DNA from: Alphaproteobacteria bacterium
GTDB taxonomy: Bacteria; Pseudomonadota; Alphaproteobacteria; SP197
DNA length: 64,000 bases
NCBI GenBank assembly: GCA_965228895.1
Contig: OZ245842.1
Span: forward strand, 2,528,001-2,592,000
Reading direction: 5' to 3'
Shown: piece after piece, positions 1-11,192 of the stretch
Layout of the letters: every line of letters starts with the position of its first letter
Position numbering within the stretch: position 1 is the stretch's first letter
Notes under the pieces: generated by a model
Told to the model about the DNA's origin: nothing
What the model saw: only the letters and a program-made list of their open reading frames with translations
The model's database searches: none
Made by a program: the position numbers and the translations under genes

Positions 1-1683
1 CTTGGCACTCATGGCCTCATAGGCTTCGGCGACCGCCTGCTTGTCGCCCAAACCGACCACGACGCCGCCGACATCGGATTTGTGGGCGATGTCCGCGCGC
101 GCTGTTTTCATGACGACGGGGTAACCGAGGCCGTCGGCCGCTGCGCATGCATCGTCCGATGTTGCGGCATCGCGCATCGCCGGGATCGGCGCACCCCACG
201 CGGCGATCATTTGAAGCGCGTCTTCGCTGGTGACCGAACCTTCGGCCAGCCTGCCGCGCCACATGGCAACAACGTCATCGCCGGGGCCCGGCGGCCGCTT
301 GGTCTCCGCGCGGTTGCGATGCCAATGGAAGAAGTGCCACAAGGCCAACAGGCCGGTTTCGGTGCCCATTAGCACGGGCACATCGAGCGCGCGCAGCCGC
401 GCGGCTTCGCCGCGGTCGATGGTGCTGTGCAGATTACCGAGCAATGCACACGGCTTATCGCTGGACTTGTGGAGCGCCGCGATGGCGTTGGTGGAGTCAT
501 ACAGAATACGGCGATCCGGCACCATGTTGGTGGCGATCACCACGGCGCCGACACCGGGGTCGTCGGCCAGGATCGGCGCGATCTGGGGCAGCACCTCGAA
601 ACCGCGCTCCCCCCAATAGTCGACGGGGTTCTCGGGCTCCAGACCGGGGTCCAGCACCTCTTCCAGACGCGCGCGCGTCGGCGCCTCGAGTTCGGTCAGC
701 TCGACACCGATATCGGCGGCCAGGTCGACGATGAGCTGACGCTCGCCGCCACTGTCGGTCTGGACGCCCAGTTGACCCGTTGTCGGCGCGCGCCCGCAGG
801 TCATGATCTCGAGCGTGTCGAGCATCTCGTCGAGGTTGCGCACCCGGATCAGATTGTGGCGGCGGAAGACGGCGTCATAGGCCGCATCCGACCCCGAGAG
901 CGCGCCACTATGGGAGAACGCGAACGCCTGCGACTTTTCCGTGCGCCCCAGTTTCAGGACGACGACCGGCAGCCCCTTCTGATCGGCACGTTCGACCGCC
1001 GCGATAAAGTTCTCGGGATCCCTTACCGCTTCCATGACGCAGGCAATCGCCTTGACGTCCGGCTCGTCGCACAGATGGTGGATGTAATCGGCCATGGTCG
1101 TCGCGACCTCGTTGCCGACCGAGACGCCGAACGCAAAACCGGCCTGCCGCTGGCTCGCCCCGACGCCCGACCATGTCGATCCGCTGTGCGACAGCAGGGC
1201 CACCGAACCCGGCTCGTCGTTGCCCGCCAGATGGGTCATGGAAAGCCAGACATCGTCGATGGCGTTGAAGAGGCCCATGCAGTTGGCGCCGCAGACGGCC
1301 ATACCGGACTCTCGCGCGATGGCCGCAATGCGTTCCTTCAGCGGCGGATCGCCAGGCGGCTCCTCGTGCAGACGACCGAGCAGCACGGCCGCCTTGACGC
1401 CGGCTTCGGCAGCCTCGGTCATTGCCGCCTCGATCCGGTTGTCGCCGACGGCCATGACGGCGCAGTCGGCAGGCTGCGGCAGATCATCGAACCGCGGCAC
1501 GCAGGGATGGCCGACAGCGGTCTCGTTTGTGGGGTGGATGCCGAAGAGCTGGCCGATAAACCGCGGACCCGCGCAATGGCTCATCACGTTCCGGCCGACA
1601 GAGCCTTCGCGCGTCGAAGCGCCCACCACGGCAATCGTGCGTGGGCGAAGCAAGGCGTTCATCGCCTCTTGTGATACGGTCAT
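1..1683 (-). CDS. Acetate--CoA ligase (ADP-forming) family / CoA-binding protein, 3' end runs off the window
   Basis: Not in the ORF track because it is truncated. Manual translation from ATG at 1683 gives MTVSQEAMNALLRPRTIAVVGAS..., CGANCMG, VSVGNE, LKLGRTE...SHSGAL, which are the family motifs. Confidence 0.85.
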   Translation of the reverse strand, partial: MTVSQEAMNALLRPRTIAVVGASTREGSVGRNVMSHCAGPRFIGQLFGIHPTNETAVGHPCVPRFDDLPQPADCAVMAVGDNRIEAAMTEAAEAGVKAAVLLGRLHEEPPGDPPLKERIAAIARESGMAVCGANCMGLFNAIDDVWLSMTHLAGNDEPGSVALLSHSGSTWSGVGASQRQAGFAFGVSVGNEVATTMADYIHHLCDEPDVKAIACVMEAVRDPENFIAAVERADQKGLPVVVLKLGRTEKSQAFAFSHSGALSGSDAAYDAVFRRHNLIRVRNLDEMLDTLEIMTCGRAPTTGQLGVQTDSGGERQLIVDLAADIGVELTELEAPTRARLEEVLDPGLEPENPVDYWGERGFEVLPQIAPILADDPGVGAVVIATNMVPDRRILYDSTNAIAALHKSSDKPCALLGNLHSTIDRGEAARLRALDVPVLMGTETGLLALWHFFHWHRNRAETKRPPGPGDDVVAMWRGRLAEGSVTSEDALQMIAAWGAPIPAMRDAATSDDACAAADGLGYPVVMKTARADIAHKSDVGGVVVGLGDKQAVAEAYEAMSAK

Positions 1684-1761
1684 GGAACTGGGCACCAGGG
1701 AGTGGGTGGCGCATCGAAGCCCAGGCGCCAGCCGACGTCAAGCAGGGGAATGGTTTCCGGG

Positions 1762-2475
1762 ATGTCCGGCACGCTTTTTTTGATCGGCACGCCGATCGGC
1801 AACTTGGATGACATCAGCCAGCGCGTGCTGACGACGCTGGGCGATCTCGATGCGTTGGCGTGTGAGGACACACGGCGCACCCGGAAGATCTATGAGCACT
1901 TCCAGCTCTCGAGCCCCAAGACCATCTTCGCCTGCCACGACCACAACGAAGACCAGGCGGTCAAACGGATCGCCGGCTTGTTGCGCGATGGCCGCAAGGT
2001 CGGGCTTGTGACCGACGCCGGTATGCCGGGCATCAGCGATCCCGGCTTTCGCGCCGTGCAGTCGGCCCTGGAGGACGAACACGACATTCAGGTGATACCG
2101 GGCCCAAGTGCGGTGGAGACCGCGCTCGCTGTCTCCGGCCTTTCTGCCGCCAGTTTCACGTTCAAGGGATTCGCGCCGAAGAAGTCCGGCAAGCGGCAGA
2201 ACTTCCTGGCCGCCGATGCGGCGATGCCGCACACGCTTGTTCTTTTTGAGTCGCCGCATCGAACCGGCGGCATGCTGGCCGACGCCCTCGCCGTGCTGGG
2301 CGATCGCCGGGCCGCCGTCTGCATCGAGCTCACCAAGATGTTCGAGGAGGTCGCACGCGGTTGGCTGTCGGAACTCGCCGAGCGGTTTGCCGAGGAGACG
2401 CCGCGCGGCGAGGTCACCGTGGTGATCGCGGGCAACAATCCGAAGTTCATGCGTCCCGAATCTCAGACGGCATGA
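1762..2475 (+). CDS. rsmI: 16S rRNA (cytidine1402-2'-O)-methyltransferase, short form (~237 aa)
   Basis: Motifs GTPIGNLDDIS, ACEDTRRT, DAGMPGISDPG, IPGPSA, FESPHR, ELTKMFEE, RGE. An alternative ATG lies at 1750. Confidence 0.93.
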   Translation: MSGTLFLIGTPIGNLDDISQRVLTTLGDLDALACEDTRRTRKIYEHFQLSSPKTIFACHDHNEDQAVKRIAGLLRDGRKVGLVTDAGMPGISDPGFRAVQSALEDEHDIQVIPGPSAVETALAVSGLSAASFTFKGFAPKKSGKRQNFLAADAAMPHTLVLFESPHRTGGMLADALAVLGDRRAAVCIELTKMFEEVARGWLSELAERFAEETPRGEVTVVIAGNNPKFMRPESQTA

Positions 2476-3554
2476 AGACGCTGCAGACGCGACGCGGTGA
2501 CCTCAAGCTGCCGGCGTTTTTGCCGGATGGCACGCGCGCGGTGGTGCGCGGCCTGGACGGTGATGATCTCACCGCCTGCGGGATCGACGCGATCATGGTG
2601 AACGCGCTGCACCTCTCCACCAACCCGGGCACGTCAACGGTGGCGGCGGTCGGTGGCATTCACCGGTTCATGGGCTGGGACGGCATCGTCGCTTCGGACT
2701 CCGGCGGCTTCCAGGCCTGGTCGCTGGCCCATGCCAACGCGAAGCTGGGCAGCGTGACCGACAAGGGGTTTGTCTATCGCCACGAAAAGAAGGGGCCTAA
2801 GAACCTGCTGACGCCGGAGAAGTGCATCCGCCATCAGATCGAGCTCGGCACCGATATCGTCTTCTGCCTCGACCAGTGCACCCATCCCGACGACAGTCCG
2901 GACGTGCAGGCCACCAGCGTCGCGCGCACGCTCGCCTGGGCCAAGCGGTGCCGTGACGAGTTCACGGCCCGGGTCGGCGAGCCGGGCGGTCCGGTCAACG
3001 ACCGCCCCCTGCTGTTCGCTGTCGTCCAGGGCGGCAACGACCCGGACCTGCGCAAGCGCTGTGCCGACCAGTTGGCCGAGATGGGTTTCGACGGTTTCGG
3101 TTTCGGCGGTTGGCCGATCGCCGACGATGGCGGTTTAACCGACATGGTCGCCCATGTCGCGGACCTGCTGCCGGCCGACGCGCCCAAACATGCGCTCGGA
3201 ATCGGCAAGCCGGATAATCTGGTAGCCGCATGGCGCGCAGGCTACCAGCTTTTCGACTGCGCCATCGCGACACGCGATGCTCGGCGGCGCCGCCTCTATG
3301 TGACATCAGATTTCGGCTCTATAGATTGGAATAGAAAAGATTTTTTCTCATTTCTTTATGTAGAAGATGAAGAACATGCGCGTGATGACAGCCCCCTCGA
3401 TTCCGCCATTGACCCGGGCGGTCCCTCGCGCGCCTATCTGCATCACCTCTTCAAGATCAAGGACAGCGCCGCCGAACGGCTGGCGACCAAACAGAACCTT
3501 CGCTTCTATGCGGCCATGATCGAACGTTTGCGCCAAACGGCGGCAGAACGGTGA
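2472..3554 (+). CDS. Divergent tRNA-guanine transglycosylase (TGT) family protein lacking the Zn-binding motif
   Basis: Motifs DSGGFQ, LDQCT, VQGG, GIGKP, FDC (nucleophile Asp), SRAYLHHL. ATG overlaps the rsmI stop (ATGA). Confidence 0.9.
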   Translation: MKTLQTRRGDLKLPAFLPDGTRAVVRGLDGDDLTACGIDAIMVNALHLSTNPGTSTVAAVGGIHRFMGWDGIVASDSGGFQAWSLAHANAKLGSVTDKGFVYRHEKKGPKNLLTPEKCIRHQIELGTDIVFCLDQCTHPDDSPDVQATSVARTLAWAKRCRDEFTARVGEPGGPVNDRPLLFAVVQGGNDPDLRKRCADQLAEMGFDGFGFGGWPIADDGGLTDMVAHVADLLPADAPKHALGIGKPDNLVAAWRAGYQLFDCAIATRDARRRRLYVTSDFGSIDWNRKDFFSFLYVEDEEHARDDSPLDSAIDPGGPSRAYLHHLFKIKDSAAERLATKQNLRFYAAMIERLRQTAAER

Positions 3555-4357
3555 CCACTGAGGCTCTCGAAACGGTCGTCACCGACCTCCGTACGAGCAC
3601 CAAGTATGCGACCCTGTGCGAGGCGACCCTTGAACGGATCGCCACATGGGCGCTTGACCGCCACCCTCGCCCGAAAGACGCGACCAAGGCCGCCAAACGC
3701 AAGCTGCATCAGGTGTTTGGCGCCTATCTCGATCCCGGCGCCATCGCCCTGGCCGAGCGCATCGTAGACGGCCTGGGGGACAGTCCGGAGGGTGCGGCCC
3801 TCGACGAGGCCGCCGACGCAATTCTGCGTCACCATGCGTCCAGCAAGGAGCGCCTTGCCAGCCTCGGCGATTTCTACCAGTCGCTCTGGCAGATCACCGG
3901 CGCACCGACCAGTGTTCTCGACATCGCCTGCGGCTTCTCGCCTTTTGCCCTGCCGATGATGGGCCTGCCAGCGGATTGCCGCTATGACGCCATCGATATC
4001 GACGCCCGCCTGATGGCCGTCGGTGAGCGGTTTCGCGCGCGTTGCGGCCAATCTGGCCGTGTCACGGCTGGCGATGTTCTGGTCAATCCGCCGGAGAACA
4101 GCACCGATGTCGCGTTGGTTCTGAAGACCCTGCCGTGCCTGGATCAACAGGAAACGGGCGCCGGTGCCCGCCTGTTGCGGCAGATCAAGGCCAGGGCCAT
4201 TGTCATCACCTATCCTGTGCGCTCGCTTGGTGGACGCGACAAGAACATGGCCGCGACCTATCGCGACAGCTTCGCCAAGGTGACGGCCGGCTTGGATCGG
4301 CGGGTTGATGAGGTCGAAGGCGGTGACGAGCTGGTCTTCGTCCTGACACAATTATGA
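3551..4357 (+). CDS. 16S rRNA (guanine1405-N7)-methyltransferase, Rmt/ArmA/Sgm (FmrO) family
   Basis: Motifs STKYATLC, KRKLHQVFGAY, HASSKERL, VLDIACG, DID, LKTLPCL, YPVRSLGGRDKNM..Y and ELVF are colinear with RmtB/Sgm motifs. GTG overlaps the TGT stop (GTGA). Confidence 0.9.
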   Translation: MTTEALETVVTDLRTSTKYATLCEATLERIATWALDRHPRPKDATKAAKRKLHQVFGAYLDPGAIALAERIVDGLGDSPEGAALDEAADAILRHHASSKERLASLGDFYQSLWQITGAPTSVLDIACGFSPFALPMMGLPADCRYDAIDIDARLMAVGERFRARCGQSGRVTAGDVLVNPPENSTDVALVLKTLPCLDQQETGAGARLLRQIKARAIVITYPVRSLGGRDKNMAATYRDSFAKVTAGLDRRVDEVEGGDELVFVLTQL

Positions 4358-4428
4358 TGACGAATTCCATGGAGAAATTGGCGGTTTCGCGCCATTGTTG
4401 GGACAACGATATAAACAAGAGGAGGCGC

Positions 4429-4980
4429 ATGATGCGCGCTTTGGCGTTTGCAGTGGTTCTTGCACCAACGCTTGCCTTTGCCGGCGTGTCCGGCCCGGCC
4501 ACCGTGGTCGATGGCGACACCTTAGGCCTGAACGGCGAGGAAATCTCGCTCTACGGCATTGACGCGTTGGAGATCACGCAGTCCTGCTCGGTCAACGATG
4601 AAGACTGGTTCTGCGGCTGGGATGCGGCCGACCGCCTGGAAGAAATCATCGGTGGGCGCGACGTTTCTTGCGAGCCGATGGGCACGGGTGCCGAAGGCGA
4701 AGCGCTCTATCGCTGCATGGCCGGTGAAGACGACCTGGCCGGCTTGATGCTGGACGAAGGCCTCGCGGTGACGGCCGCCGACACGGACGACGCCTATGTC
4801 GTGCGCGAAACCGCGGCTTCTGAAGCCGGTACCGGCATCTGGGCCGGCACCTTCATTGAACCGCAGACCTATCGCGACGGCGGTGGATGCGGTTGCTCGG
4901 CGCGCAAGAAGGCCATGCAGGATACCGCGGCCTACATGAAAGAGCAGCGCGAAGCCGAGGAAACCGAAGTCTCTAACTGA
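4429..4980 (+). CDS. Secreted thermonuclease (SNase)-fold protein, probably catalytically inactive
   Basis: Signal peptide, VVDGDT, GIDALE, C..CG, GIWAG. AGGAGG RBS lies upstream of ATG 4429. Confidence 0.75.
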   Translation: MMRALAFAVVLAPTLAFAGVSGPATVVDGDTLGLNGEEISLYGIDALEITQSCSVNDEDWFCGWDAADRLEEIIGGRDVSCEPMGTGAEGEALYRCMAGEDDLAGLMLDEGLAVTAADTDDAYVVRETAASEAGTGIWAGTFIEPQTYRDGGGCGCSARKKAMQDTAAYMKEQREAEETEVSN

Positions 4981-4989
4981 CGTCTCGTA

Positions 4990-6195
4990 TCAGACCCGTT
5001 CCAGCAGGGCGGCGATGCCCTGGCCGACGCCGATGCACATGGTAACGGCGGCGTAGCGCTCGTCGCGCCGGCGCATCTCGTAGGTGGCCGTCGCGGCAAG
5101 GCGGATGCCGCTGGCGCCGAGCGGGTGGCCAAAGGCGATGGCACCGCCATTGGGATTGACGTGCTCGGCATCGTCGGCCAGGCCGAGGTCACGGGTCACC
5201 GCAAGAACCTGGGCAGCAAACGCCTCGTTGACTTCGATGACGCCGATATCGCTGAGCGTCACGCCCAGGCGACCCAACAGTTTGCGTGTTGCCGGCGCCG
5301 GACCGATGCCCATGATGCGTGGCGGCACACCGGCGGTCGCCGCGCCGGCAATACGGGCAAGCGGTTCCAGACCATGGGCCGCCATGGCGGCCTCCGACGC
5401 AATCAGCATGGCGCCCGCGCCATCGTTCACCCCTGACGCATTGCCGGCGGTCACCGTGCCGCCGTCGCGAAACGGCGCCGGCAAACGCGCGAGTTTGTCG
5501 AGATCCGCATCAGCGCGTGGATGCTCGTCCGTATCGACAACCACGGGCTCGCGCTTGCGCTGTGGCACGTCGACCGGCACCAGTTCGTCGTTCAGCAGAT
5601 TCCCTGCCATTGCCTTGGCCGCGCGTTGTTGGCTGCGCCAGGCATAGGCGTCCTGGTCCTCGCGGCTGATCTGACGTTCTTCCGCCAGGTTCTCGGCGGT
5701 CTCCGGCATGGCATCGACGCCGAATTGTTTCTTCATCACCGGGTTGACGAAACGCCAGCCGATCGTCGTGTCGTAGATCTCGGCCTTGCGCGAAAACGCC
5801 TGGTCCGCCTTCGGCATGACGAAGGGTGCACGCGACATGCTCTCGACACCGCCGGCAATGACAAGGTCGGCCTCGCCGGTTCGGATCAAACGGGCGGCCT
5901 GGGCCATTGCCTCAAGGCCGGAACCGCAAAGTCGGTTCACCGTGACGCCGGAGACGGTCTCCGGCAAGCCGGCAAGCAGGGATGCCATGCGCGCGACATT
6001 GCGGTTGTCTTCGCCGGCTTGATTGACATTGCCGTAAATCACATCGTCGACCGCCGACCAGTCGACCTTGGGGTGGCGCGCCATCAACGCCTTCAGCGGC
6101 ACCACGGCCAGGTCGTCGGTGCGCACCGACGACAACGCGCCGCCGAAACGACCGAACGGCGTACGGATGGCATCACAAATAAAGGCCTCTGGCAT
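4990..6195 (-). CDS. pcaF: 3-oxoadipyl-CoA thiolase (PcaF/PaaJ)
   Basis: Motifs RTPFGRFGG, NQAGEDNRNVARM, NRLCGSG, NEAFA, GHPLGASG, CIGVGQG. Confidence 0.9.
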   Translation of the reverse strand: MPEAFICDAIRTPFGRFGGALSSVRTDDLAVVPLKALMARHPKVDWSAVDDVIYGNVNQAGEDNRNVARMASLLAGLPETVSGVTVNRLCGSGLEAMAQAARLIRTGEADLVIAGGVESMSRAPFVMPKADQAFSRKAEIYDTTIGWRFVNPVMKKQFGVDAMPETAENLAEERQISREDQDAYAWRSQQRAAKAMAGNLLNDELVPVDVPQRKREPVVVDTDEHPRADADLDKLARLPAPFRDGGTVTAGNASGVNDGAGAMLIASEAAMAAHGLEPLARIAGAATAGVPPRIMGIGPAPATRKLLGRLGVTLSDIGVIEVNEAFAAQVLAVTRDLGLADDAEHVNPNGGAIAFGHPLGASGIRLAATATYEMRRRDERYAAVTMCIGVGQGIAALLERV

Positions 6196-7602: not shown

Positions 7603-8361
7603 CTACCTGATGTGGGACGCGCCGTTGATGTCGACGGTCGTGCCGGTCGCATGAGGCGCCAGGCCGCTGGCGAGAAACGCGATGGTGTTGCCGACATCCT
7701 CAGCCGGCGCGATCGCGCCCAGCGGCACGTCCTTGATCATATCGTCCATGCCGTCTTGGGCGATGATGTCATCGACCATGTCGGTCGCGACAAATCCCGG
7801 CGCCACCGTATAGGCAAGAACACCCCAGTGCGCACATTTGCGCGCGATCGAGCGGGTAAGCGAGACGAGGCCACCTTTGGACGCCGCGTAGTTCATGCGG
7901 TCGTAGTCGTCGCCGCGGAAGGCGGCGCGGCTCGCCACGTTGACGATACTGCCGCCGCCACGCGCCCGAAAATGATCGACGGCATGGCGACATAACTGCG
8001 CCGCCGCCGTCAGGTTGACGCGCAGCGTGCGGTCCCATGACGCCAGGAAAGCATCGAGGTCGCCGTCCGGATCGGCGGGTTCGTAAATGCCGGCGTTGTT
8101 GACGAGCACATCGACCTGCCCCTGCCAGGCAAGCGCTTCGGACCAGATGGCCTCGGTCGCGGAAGGATCCGCCAGATCGCCCTGAACCAAACACGTCGAC
8201 GCTTCGTCAAACTCCGCCGCAAGCGCCTCGGCGGCGTCCCGGTTCCGGGCGTAGTGAATGATGACGCGCGCGCCGGCACCCGCCATCGCACGCACGGCGG
8301 CCGCGCCGATACCGCGCGCGCCACCGGTCACCAGAACGACCTTGCCATCGAACGCGATCAT
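7603..8361 (-). CDS. Short-chain dehydrogenase/reductase
   Basis: Motifs TGGARGIG, NNAGI, YAASKGG. ATG overlaps the upstream gene stop. Confidence 0.9.
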   Translation of the reverse strand: MIAFDGKVVLVTGGARGIGAAAVRAMAGAGARVIIHYARNRDAAEALAAEFDEASTCLVQGDLADPSATEAIWSEALAWQGQVDVLVNNAGIYEPADPDGDLDAFLASWDRTLRVNLTAAAQLCRHAVDHFRARGGGSIVNVASRAAFRGDDYDRMNYAASKGGLVSLTRSIARKCAHWGVLAYTVAPGFVATDMVDDIIAQDGMDDMIKDVPLGAIAPAEDVGNTIAFLASGLAPHATGTTVDINGASHIR

Positions 8362-9734
8362 GCCGAACCTCCGTAGCGGCGACATAAGAGTTCGAAGACG
8401 GCGCGGCTGCCTTGGGGGTCGCCACCCTTGGGCCGTCCGGGGCGGTCACTCAGACTCCAGCACAGCGTATCGATGTGCAGCCAAGGCACGTCGGTGCCGA
8501 CGAAGTTTTCAAGGAACAAAGCTGCCTGAATGTGATCGGCATACGGCCAATCGGCGATCGTGTTGGTGTCCGCGATATTGCTTGCCATCTTCTCTCGGTA
8601 GTCGCCCCAGATCGGGATCGGCCACATGCCGTCGTCAACGTCGTGGGATAGCGCGACTGCTTCATCGGAGAGCGTCTCGTCGTTGGCGAAGAGTGCCGGC
8701 AGATCAGGCCCCAGAGCCGCCCGTGCCGCGCCCGTCAACGTCGCCATATCAATCAGGAGTTCCGGTGGTTCTTCAACCGCGGCGGCCAGCGCATCGGCCA
8801 GGATGACACGGCCCTCCGCATCGGTATCGCCAATCTCGATGGTCGTGCCCTTGCGTGTCTTGATGACATCCATCGGACGGTAGGCGTCGCCGTCAACGGC
8901 GTTGTCGACAGCGGGAATAAGAACACGCAAACGTACACCAAGCCCCTCGCCCATCACCATGCGCGCGACCGCCAGCACGGCGGCGGCACCGCCCATGTCC
9001 TTCTTCATGCGTAACATGCCCGCGGCGTTCTTGAGGTTCAGGCCACCGCTGTCGAAACACACACCCTTGCCGACCAGCGTGACCGATGGCGCGCCCGGTT
9101 CACCCCACACCAAGTCGATCAGCCGGGGATGCCGGCTGCTGGCGCGACCGACCGCATGGATCGCCGGATAGTTGGCGTCCAGCAGTTCCCCACCTTCGAT
9201 GACGTTACAGGACCCACCAAAGTCGTTCGCCATGTCCATCGCGACAGCAGCCAGGTCACCGGGACCCATGTCCTCGGCCGGCGTGTTGATGAGGTCGCGC
9301 GCCATCCAGACCGCTTCGGCGATACCTGCAGCGCGACCGATCGCTTCACCCTCTGGCAACACAAGACGCGCGGCTTGGCCGGCGATATCGCGATAGCGGT
9401 CGAACCGGTAAGCACCCAACGCCCAGCCTAGATAGAGCGACTCAGACTGCGCCGGTGCGGCTTCAAGGCGATAGTCGCCAGGCGGTAATCCGTAGGCAAG
9501 ACCGCCGGTGGTCCATAGATCCGGCGCCTCGCCAAGGCCGACCACAACGCCTTCCAGGCTGCCTTTTATGCCGGGCAGGCCGCACCACGCACCAGCCTTC
9601 GCGTCAAAACCCATGTCCTTGACCCAGGTCGACAGGCGAGCCGGCTGTGCGTCCAGCCAGGCGGTCAGACCGTCTGTGCCGACCAAATGGATCGGCAGCG
9701 CGTCTGGCGTCTCGGCGGCAAAACAGGAGAGCAT
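8358..9734 (-). CDS. M17 leucyl aminopeptidase family protein (divergent copy)
   Basis: Motifs VGKGVCFDSGG, MKKDMGG, DTDAEGR, DMATLTGA. Confidence 0.9.
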   Translation of the reverse strand: MLSCFAAETPDALPIHLVGTDGLTAWLDAQPARLSTWVKDMGFDAKAGAWCGLPGIKGSLEGVVVGLGEAPDLWTTGGLAYGLPPGDYRLEAAPAQSESLYLGWALGAYRFDRYRDIAGQAARLVLPEGEAIGRAAGIAEAVWMARDLINTPAEDMGPGDLAAVAMDMANDFGGSCNVIEGGELLDANYPAIHAVGRASSRHPRLIDLVWGEPGAPSVTLVGKGVCFDSGGLNLKNAAGMLRMKKDMGGAAAVLAVARMVMGEGLGVRLRVLIPAVDNAVDGDAYRPMDVIKTRKGTTIEIGDTDAEGRVILADALAAAVEEPPELLIDMATLTGAARAALGPDLPALFANDETLSDEAVALSHDVDDGMWPIPIWGDYREKMASNIADTNTIADWPYADHIQAALFLENFVGTDVPWLHIDTLCWSLSDRPGRPKGGDPQGSRAVFELLCRRYGGSA

Positions 9735-9740
9735 GATGCG

Positions 9741-11114
9741 TTAACGCCCGTAACGTTCTTCCAGCAGGGCAAACAGACCACGCACCGCCATCGGCTCGCC
9801 GCCCGCCGGGCGACCGGGTCGGCCACTAAGATTCCACCCCATGATGTCGAAGTGGGCCCACGGGATCCCATCATCGACAAAATGCTGCAGGAACAAGGCA
9901 GCCGTGATGGCGCCGGCACCTGGACCGGACCCCGCGTTGTTGATGTCGGCGACGTCGCCCTTGATCATCTGTTGATACGGCTGCCATAGCGGCAGGCGCC
10001 ACGCGGGATCGGTATGGTCGGCGCCGGTCCTTCGGATGGTGTCGGCAAGGTCGTCGTCGTTACAGAAGAACGCCGGCAGGTCGGGACCCAGCGCAACGCG
10101 CGCGGCGCCAGTCAGGGTCGCCATGTCGATCAAAAGATCGGGCTTTTCGCTCGACGCTTCGGCCAGGGCATCACACATGATGACGCGCCCCTCAGCATCG
10201 GTGTTGCCGATTTCGATGGTGATGCCCTTGCGCGTCTTGATAACGTCGAGCGGGCGATAGGCGTTGCCGGCGACACTGTTCTCGACCGCCGGCACCAGGA
10301 CCCGCAAGCGCACCTTCAAACCGAGCCGCATGATCATGCCCGCCAACGCGAGGACACTGGCGCTCCCGCCCATGTCCTTTTTCATGAGTTTCATGCCGCT
10401 TGCCGGCTTCAGGTCGAGCCCGCCTGAATCGAAACACACGCCCTTGCCCACCAAGGTCAACTTGGGCGCGTCTTTATCGCCCCAGCGGATATCGATCAGG
10501 CGCGGCGGCCGCTGGCTCGCCCTGCCGACCGTATGGATCGAGGGGTAGTTCTGGGCCAGCAGGTCATCGCCGACGGTGATCTCGCACGTTGCTCCGCAGT
10601 GATCGGCAAGCGCCTCGGCGGCGTCGGCGAGCTCCTCCGGCCCCATGTCTTCGGCCGGCGTGTTGATGAGATCGCGCCCGAGGTAGAGGCTCTCGGCCAT
10701 CGCGGTGACGCGGTCTTCGCTGGCTTCGCCGGGCATCGCGAGCTTGGCGCGCGGTTCGGTATCGCGATACCGGGTAAAACGATAGCTCCCCAATGCCCAA
10801 CCCAGCGCCAGATCGTTCGCCTCACCGGAACCAAGCGCGCCATCGACGTCATAGACCAGGTTCGACGGCAGTACGCCCGGCAAACTGCCCAGCGAAAAGA
10901 CGTTGGTCCCATCGCCGACCCCAACGAGAACCCGTTCGATGTCACCGCTGGCAGAGGGGATCAGAAGATGCGTGTGCTCTTTCGCTTCAAATGTGTTGGC
11001 GCGGACCCAGGCCGCATCCCGCGCGGCAGCAGCCTCCAACCACTCGGTCAGACGCTCCGGCGTCAAAAGGATGAGAGGGACGACATCGCCGTCGGCCGCA
11101 GAAAAGCAGTCCAT
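9741..11114 (-). CDS. M17 leucyl aminopeptidase (PepB-like)
   Basis: Motifs VGKGVCFDSGG, MKKDMGG, ENSV, NTDAEGR, DMATLTGA, HFDI. Confidence 0.92.
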   Translation of the reverse strand: MDCFSAADGDVVPLILLTPERLTEWLEAAAARDAAWVRANTFEAKEHTHLLIPSASGDIERVLVGVGDGTNVFSLGSLPGVLPSNLVYDVDGALGSGEANDLALGWALGSYRFTRYRDTEPRAKLAMPGEASEDRVTAMAESLYLGRDLINTPAEDMGPEELADAAEALADHCGATCEITVGDDLLAQNYPSIHTVGRASQRPPRLIDIRWGDKDAPKLTLVGKGVCFDSGGLDLKPASGMKLMKKDMGGSASVLALAGMIMRLGLKVRLRVLVPAVENSVAGNAYRPLDVIKTRKGITIEIGNTDAEGRVIMCDALAEASSEKPDLLIDMATLTGAARVALGPDLPAFFCNDDDLADTIRRTGADHTDPAWRLPLWQPYQQMIKGDVADINNAGSGPGAGAITAALFLQHFVDDGIPWAHFDIMGWNLSGRPGRPAGGEPMAVRGLFALLEERYGR

Positions 11115-11192
11115 CAAGACCTCGTTGATCAGCAGAGGCGCGAGCCTAGAGCAAGTTGGTTTGCCATTACATCAATCAAAAGCAGACTCGTC

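Follow-up and report, generated by a model that had tools for sequence, protein, structure and literature searches.

A zinc-less paralogue of tRNA-guanine transglycosylase encoded between two 16S rRNA methyltransferase genes and its possible role at the ribosomal decoding site

What substrate is served by a paralogue of tRNA-guanine transglycosylase (Tgt) that has retained the catalytic Asp residues of the family, carries an altered base pocket and has lost its Zn ligands? This question is raised by a gene at positions 2472..3554 of a stretch of 64,000 nucleotides, hereafter referred to as the window (contig OZ245842.1, positions 2,528,001 to 2,592,000, forward strand; assembly GCA_965228895.1), from an alphaproteobacterium whose genome is a single contig of 5.53 Mb and is 98.7% complete. 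A preliminary description, made from the letters of the window alone, had proposed an active enzyme with a different base and/or RNA substrate. The gene and its homologues are designated here as TGT2, a name coined for the present work, as no published name for the clade was found in the literature. Unless stated otherwise, all the coordinates given below are on the forward strand of the window.

The gene is a single open frame of 360 codons whose translation is a TGT-fold protein. The ATG at 2472 was taken as the start, and the TTG at 2361 suggested by the finder of open reading frames (ORFs) was rejected, because relatives of 358-363 amino acids identified in the protein search begin at the same Met as the former. 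The product matches the Pfam TGT family (PF01702) over residues 3-356 with a score far above chance (274 bits, cut-off 26.3, E-value 2.4e-81) and exceeds the cut-off of the TGT superfamily model TIGR00449 (262.5 versus 47.6 bits), but falls below that of the Tgt equivalog model TIGR00430 (263.9 versus 306.75 bits). A canonical Tgt, with CGCVAC and the ligand His both present, is encoded elsewhere in the same genome; it scores 513 bits on Pfam TGT, compared with 273.6 for TGT2, and the two proteins share 36-37% identity. An AlphaFold2 model of TGT2, calculated with 20 clade members as input, has a mean pLDDT of 89.9 and a pTM of 0.90. The former Zn loop is modelled with pLDDT values of about 90-94, the only low part being a clade-specific insertion at residues 281-290 or so (pLDDT 64), and Foldseek superposes the model on Zymomonas mobilis TGT with a TM-score of 0.87 and a root-mean-square deviation of 2.4 Å over 364 columns.

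Rates of nonsynonymous to synonymous substitution (dN/dS) were calculated by the Nei-Gojobori method for 11 coding sequences of TGT2 lacking the Zn site. The ratio is 0.02-0.09 in six close pairs (dS 0.50-0.65) and at most 0.28 in every pair printed, and the former Zn subdomain itself (residues 285-345) shows values of 0.04-0.24. TGT2 is thus an intact gene kept by strong purifying selection and is not decaying; the relaxed dN/dS that the preliminary description had named as the sign of an inactive, degenerating copy is not observed.

Residues were numbered from a HMMER alignment to Z. mobilis TGT and a MAFFT alignment to the canonical Tgt of the host, and the motifs quoted in the preliminary description (DSGGFQ, LDQC, VQGG, FDC, GGWPIAD, HALGIG, PDGT, SAIDPGGP and TKQN) were all found, their coordinates being checked at the same time. 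The three catalytic Asp residues characteristic of Tgt (Asp102, Asp156 and Asp280), described earlier as kept, do align to D76, D134 and D262. D76 occurs together with S77 and Q81, the counterparts of Ser103 and Gln107, in DSGGFQ (2697..2714); D134, which reads the face of guanine, is followed by Q135 and C136 at the positions of Glu157 and Cys158 (2871..2879, in LDQC); and D262 of FDC (3255..3257) corresponds to Asp280, which is the Tgt nucleophile according to the excerpted text of PMC3660597. Gln203 and Gly229-Gly230 are also conserved, as Q186 of VQGG and G212-G213, respectively.

The remodelling of the pocket noted earlier was confirmed by the same alignments. In Tgt, the peptide between Leu231 and Ala232 exposes its NH toward bound guanine and its C=O toward preQ1, the amide then being bonded to Glu235 (PMC3660597, in excerpt). 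In TGT2 the segment Leu231-Ala232-Val233-Gly234-Glu235 is replaced by W214-P215-I216-A217-D218 in the motif GGWPIAD (3105..3125), and as the proline at position 232 has no backbone NH, this peptide switch cannot work. H240 and L242 of HALGIG (3189..3206) stand in place of Tyr258 and Met260, and D19 of PDGT (2526..2528) in place of Val45, so that the features by which a Tgt pocket is recognised, namely the Leu231/Ala232 switch, Glu235, Met260 and Val45, are represented in TGT2 by W214-P215, D218, L242 and D19.

The significance of these substitutions was assessed in a census of 201 TGT2 and 122 canonical domains. D76, S77, Q81, D134, C136, Q186, G212, G213 and D262 are conserved at 97% or more in both the sets. 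Position D19 is Asp in 100% of the TGT2 sequences and Val in 99% of the canonical ones, and V45D, L231W, A232P, M260L and A227G, along with a few surface positions, are clade-specific (conserved at 90% or more in TGT2 and at 80% or more in the canonical set). D19, W214-P215 and L242 are 98-100% conserved in the 201 sequences, part of which had been picked with the regular expression GG[WFY]P; for those rows the conservation of the Trp and Pro is partly circular, while 81 rows derived from genomic loci were not so picked. The substituted positions are grouped around the N7/C7 edge of the pocket, which suggests that the base handled by TGT2 would be guanine-like and different at position 7, either an N7-methylated cationic guanine or a 7-substituted deazaguanine.

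When one genome of each species was scanned, 490 relatives of TGT2 were confirmed, and the loci of the best 80 of these 490, which come from more than 15 phyla, were used for the locus analyses. Trees were calculated for these 80 proteins and the window protein against six canonical Tgt sequences from the same genomes or phyla; with no archaeal, eukaryotic or DpdA outgroup, their root is unfixed. The split between TGT2 and canonical Tgt received a support of 100 in both the FastTree and the quick IQ-TREE (LG+G4) trees, and the window protein therefore branches outside the canonical bacterial Tgt, whereas a position within that clade had been named in the preliminary description as part of what would contradict it. 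As judged from the trees and alignments, TGT2 is a large distinct Tgt clade, most members of which bear the Zn site. D19, W214-P215 and L242 are ancestral to this multi-phylum clade, and the pocket is consequently not a peculiarity of one gene. Canonical Tgt is also present in all the five complete TGT2 genomes examined, from five phyla, as well as in the host genome. Within the host's own family TGT2 occurs in 13 of 33 genomes, while an even sample of the class Alphaproteobacteria contains it in only 2 of 201 genomes (E-value 1e-90 or lower), both belonging to that family; TGT2 is an accessory gene with a patchy distribution in the class.

The history of the Zn site is a different one. In the window protein the former Zn loop reads PLDSAIDPGGP (3393..3425), directly before SRAYLHHL; it is three residues shorter than its canonical counterpart and has no Cys. 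The fourth ligand, His349, is replaced by Q341 (3492..3494) in the motif TKQN (3486..3497). At the places of the ligands Cys318, Cys320, Cys323 and His349 the protein thus has I313, a deletion, P315 and Q341, which bears out the earlier statement that all four were lost, and the Zn site that characterises Tgt is absent. Among the 24 closest relatives (P0002-P0025, 65-91% identity), all from Rhodospirillales-type metagenome-assembled genomes (MAGs), one is incomplete; CxCxxC is found in none of the 23 full-length sequences, the fourth-ligand position being His in 15 and Gln in 8 of them. The next 96 relatives (P0026-P0121, 53-59% identity), from Latescibacterota, Hydrogenedentes, Ignavibacteria, Myxococcota and others, have DSGGFQ, GGWP, HALGIG and FDC in common, yet CxCxxC is retained in 89 of the 96 and the His of T-x-H-N in all 96, so that the loss of Zn and the change of the pocket, which had been presented together, must be separated. 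When the Zn state was counted on a tree of 87 rows inferred after removal of the Zn columns from the alignment, CxCxxC was found to change state at least four times, nine rows being without the motif. Two of these nine (CDGPCC and CDALCC) still have three Cys; real erosion of the site is seen in the alphaproteobacterial clade, with no Cys, and in a Bacteroidota clade, with one or two. Since the motif changes state repeatedly within a clade sharing the altered pocket, the loss of Zn is, on the evidence of this count, a repeated and late event in a clade with an old altered pocket, separate in the alphaproteobacterial family and in Bacteroidota. In this lineage a TGT-fold protein has given up its 'structural' zinc while purifying selection continued, an example that helps in understanding the purpose of the Zn subdomain.

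The earlier proposal of an active enzyme with a different substrate therefore stands in part. The retention of the catalytic and guanine-face residues, the purifying selection, the position outside the Tgt clade and the score below the equivalog cut-off all agree with it, and the protein has the appearance of a working enzyme whose substrate differs from that of Tgt; its two marks, the pocket change and the Zn loss, are separate events.

The nature of that substrate is suggested by the genomic context, which was absent from the preliminary description: TGT2 lies between rsmI and a gene for a G1405 methyltransferase of the Rmt type, and this points to 16S rRNA as the substrate. The upstream gene, rsmI (1762..2475, beginning with MSGTLFLIGTPIG at 1762), encodes the 16S rRNA C1402 2'-O-methyltransferase (Cm1402; TIGR00096, 196.4 versus 167.9 bits) and is the sole copy in the host genome. 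The downstream gene (3551..4357) encodes a homologue of the Rmt/FmrO-type 16S rRNA (G1405-N7) methyltransferases, with 177.5 bits on PF07091 (cut-off 27), 230.1 bits on NCBIfam NF000466, just below its cut-off of 250, and matches to the structures of Sgm (E-value 2e-45) and RmtC (E-value 5e-35); it is the only FmrO-family gene of the genome. The stop codon of rsmI overlaps the start of TGT2 in ATGA and the stop of TGT2 overlaps the GTG start of the Rmt-type gene in GTGA, and TGT2 is accordingly predicted to be translationally coupled to both the genes in one operon. A promoter and terminator scan of 1500-5200 gave nothing useful above the shuffled expectation.

Residues K20, Y21, R50, H54, K204, K236 and M245 of RmtC serve in 30S docking, distortion of helix 44 (h44) and N7 catalysis, according to an excerpt of 10.1101/2023.03.13.532395. 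They align to K18, Y19, K49, H53, K192, R224 and M233 of the window protein, with Y19, H53, K192 and M233 invariant in 24 module-linked homologues, and because equivalents of K20, Y21, H54, K204 and M245 are present, this neighbour has the look of a genuine enzyme for G1405. The host's own 16S rRNA contains the standard target sequence CCGCCCGUCACACC.

The association extends far beyond the host. An FmrO homologue occurs within 75 of the 80 TGT2 loci; in 67 it is adjacent, on the same strand and within 300 bp (53 downstream and 14 upstream of TGT2), and in five more it lies on the same strand one gene away. An rsmI homologue is found within 49 loci, in 43 of them as part of the same-strand cluster. 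Three of the five genomes whose TGT2 locus lacks FmrO carry it elsewhere. The gene order of the module differs between phyla, which argues for linkage under selection rather than frozen synteny. Fusions of TGT2 to FmrO (P0122 and P0123) and to RsmH (P0124) were also encountered, each as a single database sequence for which a gene-calling artefact is possible. Apart from FmrO and RsmI no family recurs widely near TGT2, the next reaching at most 10 of the 80 loci once antisense artefacts are set aside, and no gene for an incoming base is recurrent; both searches used a crude ORF picking that recovered TGT2 itself in 65 of the 80 loci.

The dependence seems to run in one direction. In the host's family all the 13 TGT2 genomes contain FmrO, while 14 of the 27 FmrO genomes lack TGT2, so that TGT2 would seem to require the methyltransferase while the latter does not require TGT2; in general, Rmt/FmrO is often found without TGT2, and TGT2 almost never without Rmt/FmrO. 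In three relatives lacking TGT2 (loci L085, L087 and L088) rsmI is not found within the 7-kb stretch searched, and FmrO keeps the neighbour with similarity to staphylococcal nuclease (SNase) described below; the module is rearranged within one genus.

TGT2 is also carried by clinical resistance plasmids. A tblastn search of plasmids gave, among the matches listed, 12 records with 42-45% identity to TGT2, as compared with 33-35% for canonical tgt. The gene arrays inspected were rsmH-tgt-rmtG-(short S-adenosylmethionine (SAM)-methyltransferase ORF)-ISVsa3 on pKP13f, tgt-metallophosphoesterase-rmtB2 on a Providencia plasmid and tgt-rmtD2-IS91 on a Klebsiella pneumoniae plasmid. The tgt genes beside rmtG, rmtD2 and rmtB2 encode GGWP, DSGGFQ and FDC together with an intact CxCxxC and His, and the plasmid copies form one subclade with the RsmH-TGT2 fusion (support 99, quick IQ-TREE). 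RmtD, RmtG and RmtB are established m7G1405 enzymes, and hence, at least on the plasmids, TGT2 is paired with a methyltransferase that acts on G1405. In print, these ORFs appear in gene maps: a 'putative tRNA ribosyltransferase' upstream of rmtG (excerpt of PMC3904158), the array 'IS91-rmtD1-tgt-groEL-IS91' (excerpt of PMC8446631) and, in the excerpted gene list of a published review, 'rsmH, tgt, and rsmL', where the equation of rsmL with rsmI is only an assumption. No mention of the plasmid ORF beyond such maps, and no function assigned to the paralogue, was found in the literature searches, whose coverage did not extend to subscription-only papers and supplements.

Taken together, these observations lead us to propose, tentatively and as a reading that may well prove wrong, that TGT2 is a base-exchange enzyme acting at the 16S decoding site in dependence on Rmt, most likely on m7G1405. 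The Rmt enzyme would first methylate N7 of G1405 at the top of helix 44 of 16S rRNA. TGT2, acting downstream, would be unable to read an unmethylated N7, its Trp-Pro having no backbone NH, and would accept the cationic m7G, which would also be the better leaving group. Asp262 would then attack C1' and the base would be replaced, the candidates for the incoming base being a salvaged preQ1, another 7-deazaguanine or plain guanine. The preference for m7G1405 is argued from the one-way dependence, the loss of the N7-reading NH and the better leaving group; the narrower statement that it is the m7G1405 base which is swapped is nevertheless doubtful, and it is also rather unlikely, though worth stating, that TGT2 would be the first rRNA base-exchange enzyme, with Rmt methylation of N7 an activation step and not the end product. 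The loss of Zn in the host's lineage would be a later reduction that leaves the function in place. As to the incoming base, Tgt and QueA are kept in the host genome and in a relative (G001), in both of which QueC and QueF are not found above the cut-off; a 7-deazaguanine would thus have to be salvaged, and the pattern suggests that preQ1 is obtained from outside, could be available to TGT2 and would be what queuosine synthesis depends on. Guanine is the other simple candidate and would make a co-translated or fused writer-eraser pair, which is less likely. A pure eraser that converts m7G1405 to G is less likely than a forward pathway, because the writer is translated together with TGT2 and in some cases fused to it, and because strains with tgt-rmt are reported to be resistant.

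Several points weigh against the proposed exchange. To our knowledge no base-exchanged nucleotide occurs in any rRNA, and none was found in the literature searches either. Known Tgt enzymes bind hairpin loops. Clinical strains with tgt-rmtG or tgt-rmtD have been reported as highly aminoglycoside-resistant, which argues against an efficient reversion of m7G1405 to G, in those hosts at any rate. The absence of QueC and QueF above the cut-off narrows the supply of an incoming base, and FmrO was not found in two of the 80 TGT2 genomes, both Planctomycetota MAGs of unknown completeness. In the mature 30S subunit G1405 is buried in h44 and must flip out (excerpt of 10.1101/2023.03.13.532395). Both the RNA target and the activity of TGT2 are predictions, and the linkage could reflect co-regulation of enzymes of the translation apparatus rather than a shared nucleotide.

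The last point leads to an alternative that is unlikely but deserves serious attention, in which TGT2 is a tRNA enzyme acting on a different base, position or set of tRNAs than Tgt and is linked to rsmI and rmt through joint regulation only. The closest characterised relatives are all tRNA enzymes, the RNA-backbone positions of Tgt are kept (N44, Q81, K246, R268 and R271 for Asn70, Gln107, Lys264, Arg286 and Arg289), and in the published gene maps, as far as excerpted, the plasmid copy is assigned to tRNA modification. A canonical Tgt is, however, already present in every genome checked, no tRNA or tRNA-modification gene is recurrent in the 80 loci (with the same crude ORF picking), and co-regulation alone can hardly explain a near-obligate, one-way dependence on an rRNA methyltransferase or fusions to FmrO and RsmH. 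The fusions and the tight coupling with methyltransferases would also fit a non-catalytic partner comparable to eukaryotic QTRT2, which would help Rmt and/or RsmI to dock on or remodel helix 44 without any base exchange; the equivalents of the dimer hot spot (F66, Y322 and H325) are kept, and the lost Zn site is evidence that the protein has been freed from some of the constraints on canonical Tgt. This explanation is improbable in view of the invariance of the nucleophile Asp, the general acid/base Asp and the guanine-face residues across the clade and of the many genomes in which Rmt enzymes work alone, while QTRT2 displays the opposite pattern, with Zn ligands kept and catalytic residues lost (excerpt of PMC3660597).

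Two further explanations were rejected. Retention of a Tgt paralogue beside Tgt is also seen with DpdA (excerpt of PMC5699537), but a DpdA-type DNA 7-deazaguanine transglycosylase, or a defence function, is very improbable for TGT2, which scores 17.2 bits on NF041059 against a cut-off of 200 and gives no PADLOC hit; no dpd or DNA-metabolism genes recur in the 80 loci, again with the crude ORF picking, and QueC was not found in the host genome. Even less credit can be given to a redundant or decaying Tgt duplicate. The loss of all the Zn ligands and a frame-disrupted copy in one relative (G020) would agree with decay, whereas the low dN/dS of close pairs, the divergence from the host's own Tgt, the separate clade and the operon conserved across phyla contradict it, and the rsmI next to the G020 copy is frame-shifted as well, which suggests assembly errors over decay.

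What is new here is a Tgt clade whose substrate is probably a new one, and it would become a new category if base exchange in rRNA were shown. Were TGT2 to act on 16S rRNA, this would be the first transglycosylation in the ribosome, located at the decoding centre where aminoglycosides bind, and the Rmt methyltransferases, which cause clinical pan-aminoglycoside resistance, would be given a native role in cell physiology. The acquired rmtD, rmtG and rmtB2 would then represent the first half of a two-step pathway with the second half still attached, and the tgt-like ORF beside them a working partner, not a passenger.

The remaining neighbour in the window, at 4354..4980, encodes an SNase-like protein with a likely signal peptide (PF00565, 25.1 bits), the likely true start being an internal Met near 4429. 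The gene occurs in 3 of the 80 TGT2 loci and adjoins the Rmt gene only in the host's alphaproteobacterial family; as it also stands beside FmrO in relatives without TGT2, the SNase-like protein is probably not part of the module. In L085 the Rmt-like gene follows same-strand ORFs of 599 and 510 amino acids in place of rsmI-TGT2. In the G020 locus (L086, G020:C21:65000-70500) rsmI and TGT2 are frame-disrupted and the Rmt-like and SNase-like genes intact; a central segment of about 70 codons of TGT2 is out of frame, with in-frame stops on read-through. The two disrupted genes may represent a pseudogene pair or assembly indels, and as these possibilities cannot be separated the TGT2 copy was left out of use.

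Elsewhere in the window, two adjacent paralogous ORFs of 458 amino acids on the reverse strand (8358-9734 and 9741-11117) look like a tandem duplicate and carry a NTDAEGR motif, which we take to be typical of M17 leucyl aminopeptidases. The searches also recovered at least 116 proteins of 631-727 amino acids (P0126-P0241, 32-37% identity to TGT2) in which a canonical-type Tgt is joined to a C-terminal PF05430, an MnmC-like SAM methyltransferase. P0126, the only one of them to be scanned, gave 454.6 bits with the Pfam TGT profile. Anaeromyxobacter, Binatia, Verrucomicrobiota and Spirochaetes are among the named sources of these proteins, which represent a distinct type of fusion between Tgt and a methyltransferase. 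A single sequence, P0125, has a TGT2-like N-terminal part (TGT profile 8-269) followed by DUF5680; it may have arisen artefactually, through truncation or fusion.

Among the known systems, TGT2 is closest in fold to Tgt of Z. mobilis and Escherichia coli (TIGR00430; PDB 1OZM and 1Q2R), with which it shares 33-37% identity, the TM-score given above, and Asp102, Asp156, Asp280, Ser103, Gln107, Gln203 and Gly229-Gly230. It differs in falling below the equivalog cut-off and into a separate clade, in V45D, L231W, A232P, M260L and Y258H, in a start some 26 residues later than that of Z. mobilis TGT, in insertions of about 4 and 13 residues, in the loss of the Zn ligands in the host's lineage, and in being an extra copy, in the genomes checked, near rRNA methyltransferases. 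The tgt ORFs beside rmtG, rmtD and rmtB2 on clinical plasmids and islands belong to the TGT2 clade by identity (42-45%), by GGWP, DSGGFQ and FDC and by the pairing with Rmt, the rmtG array also having rsmH and the short SAM-methyltransferase ORF; they differ in keeping CxCxxC and the His, in forming their own subclade with the RsmH-TGT2 fusion and in lying on fragments bounded by IS91/ISCR. DpdA resembles TGT2 as a paralogue of the Tgt superfamily found beside Tgt with a nucleic-acid target other than tRNA position 34, a likeness that for TGT2 is predicted; TGT2 has neither a significant DpdA score nor dpd neighbours nor a PADLOC hit. QTRT2 is likewise a diverged Tgt paralogue working with a partner, but its similarity is weak (about 25 bits) and it has the Zn ligands but no longer the catalytic residues, TGT2 being the reverse. 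The archaeal enzyme arcTGT shares the TIM-barrel Tgt core, against which TGT2, with 80.5 bits for a cut-off of 350, is a protein of 360 amino acids that has no C-terminal PUA-type domains.

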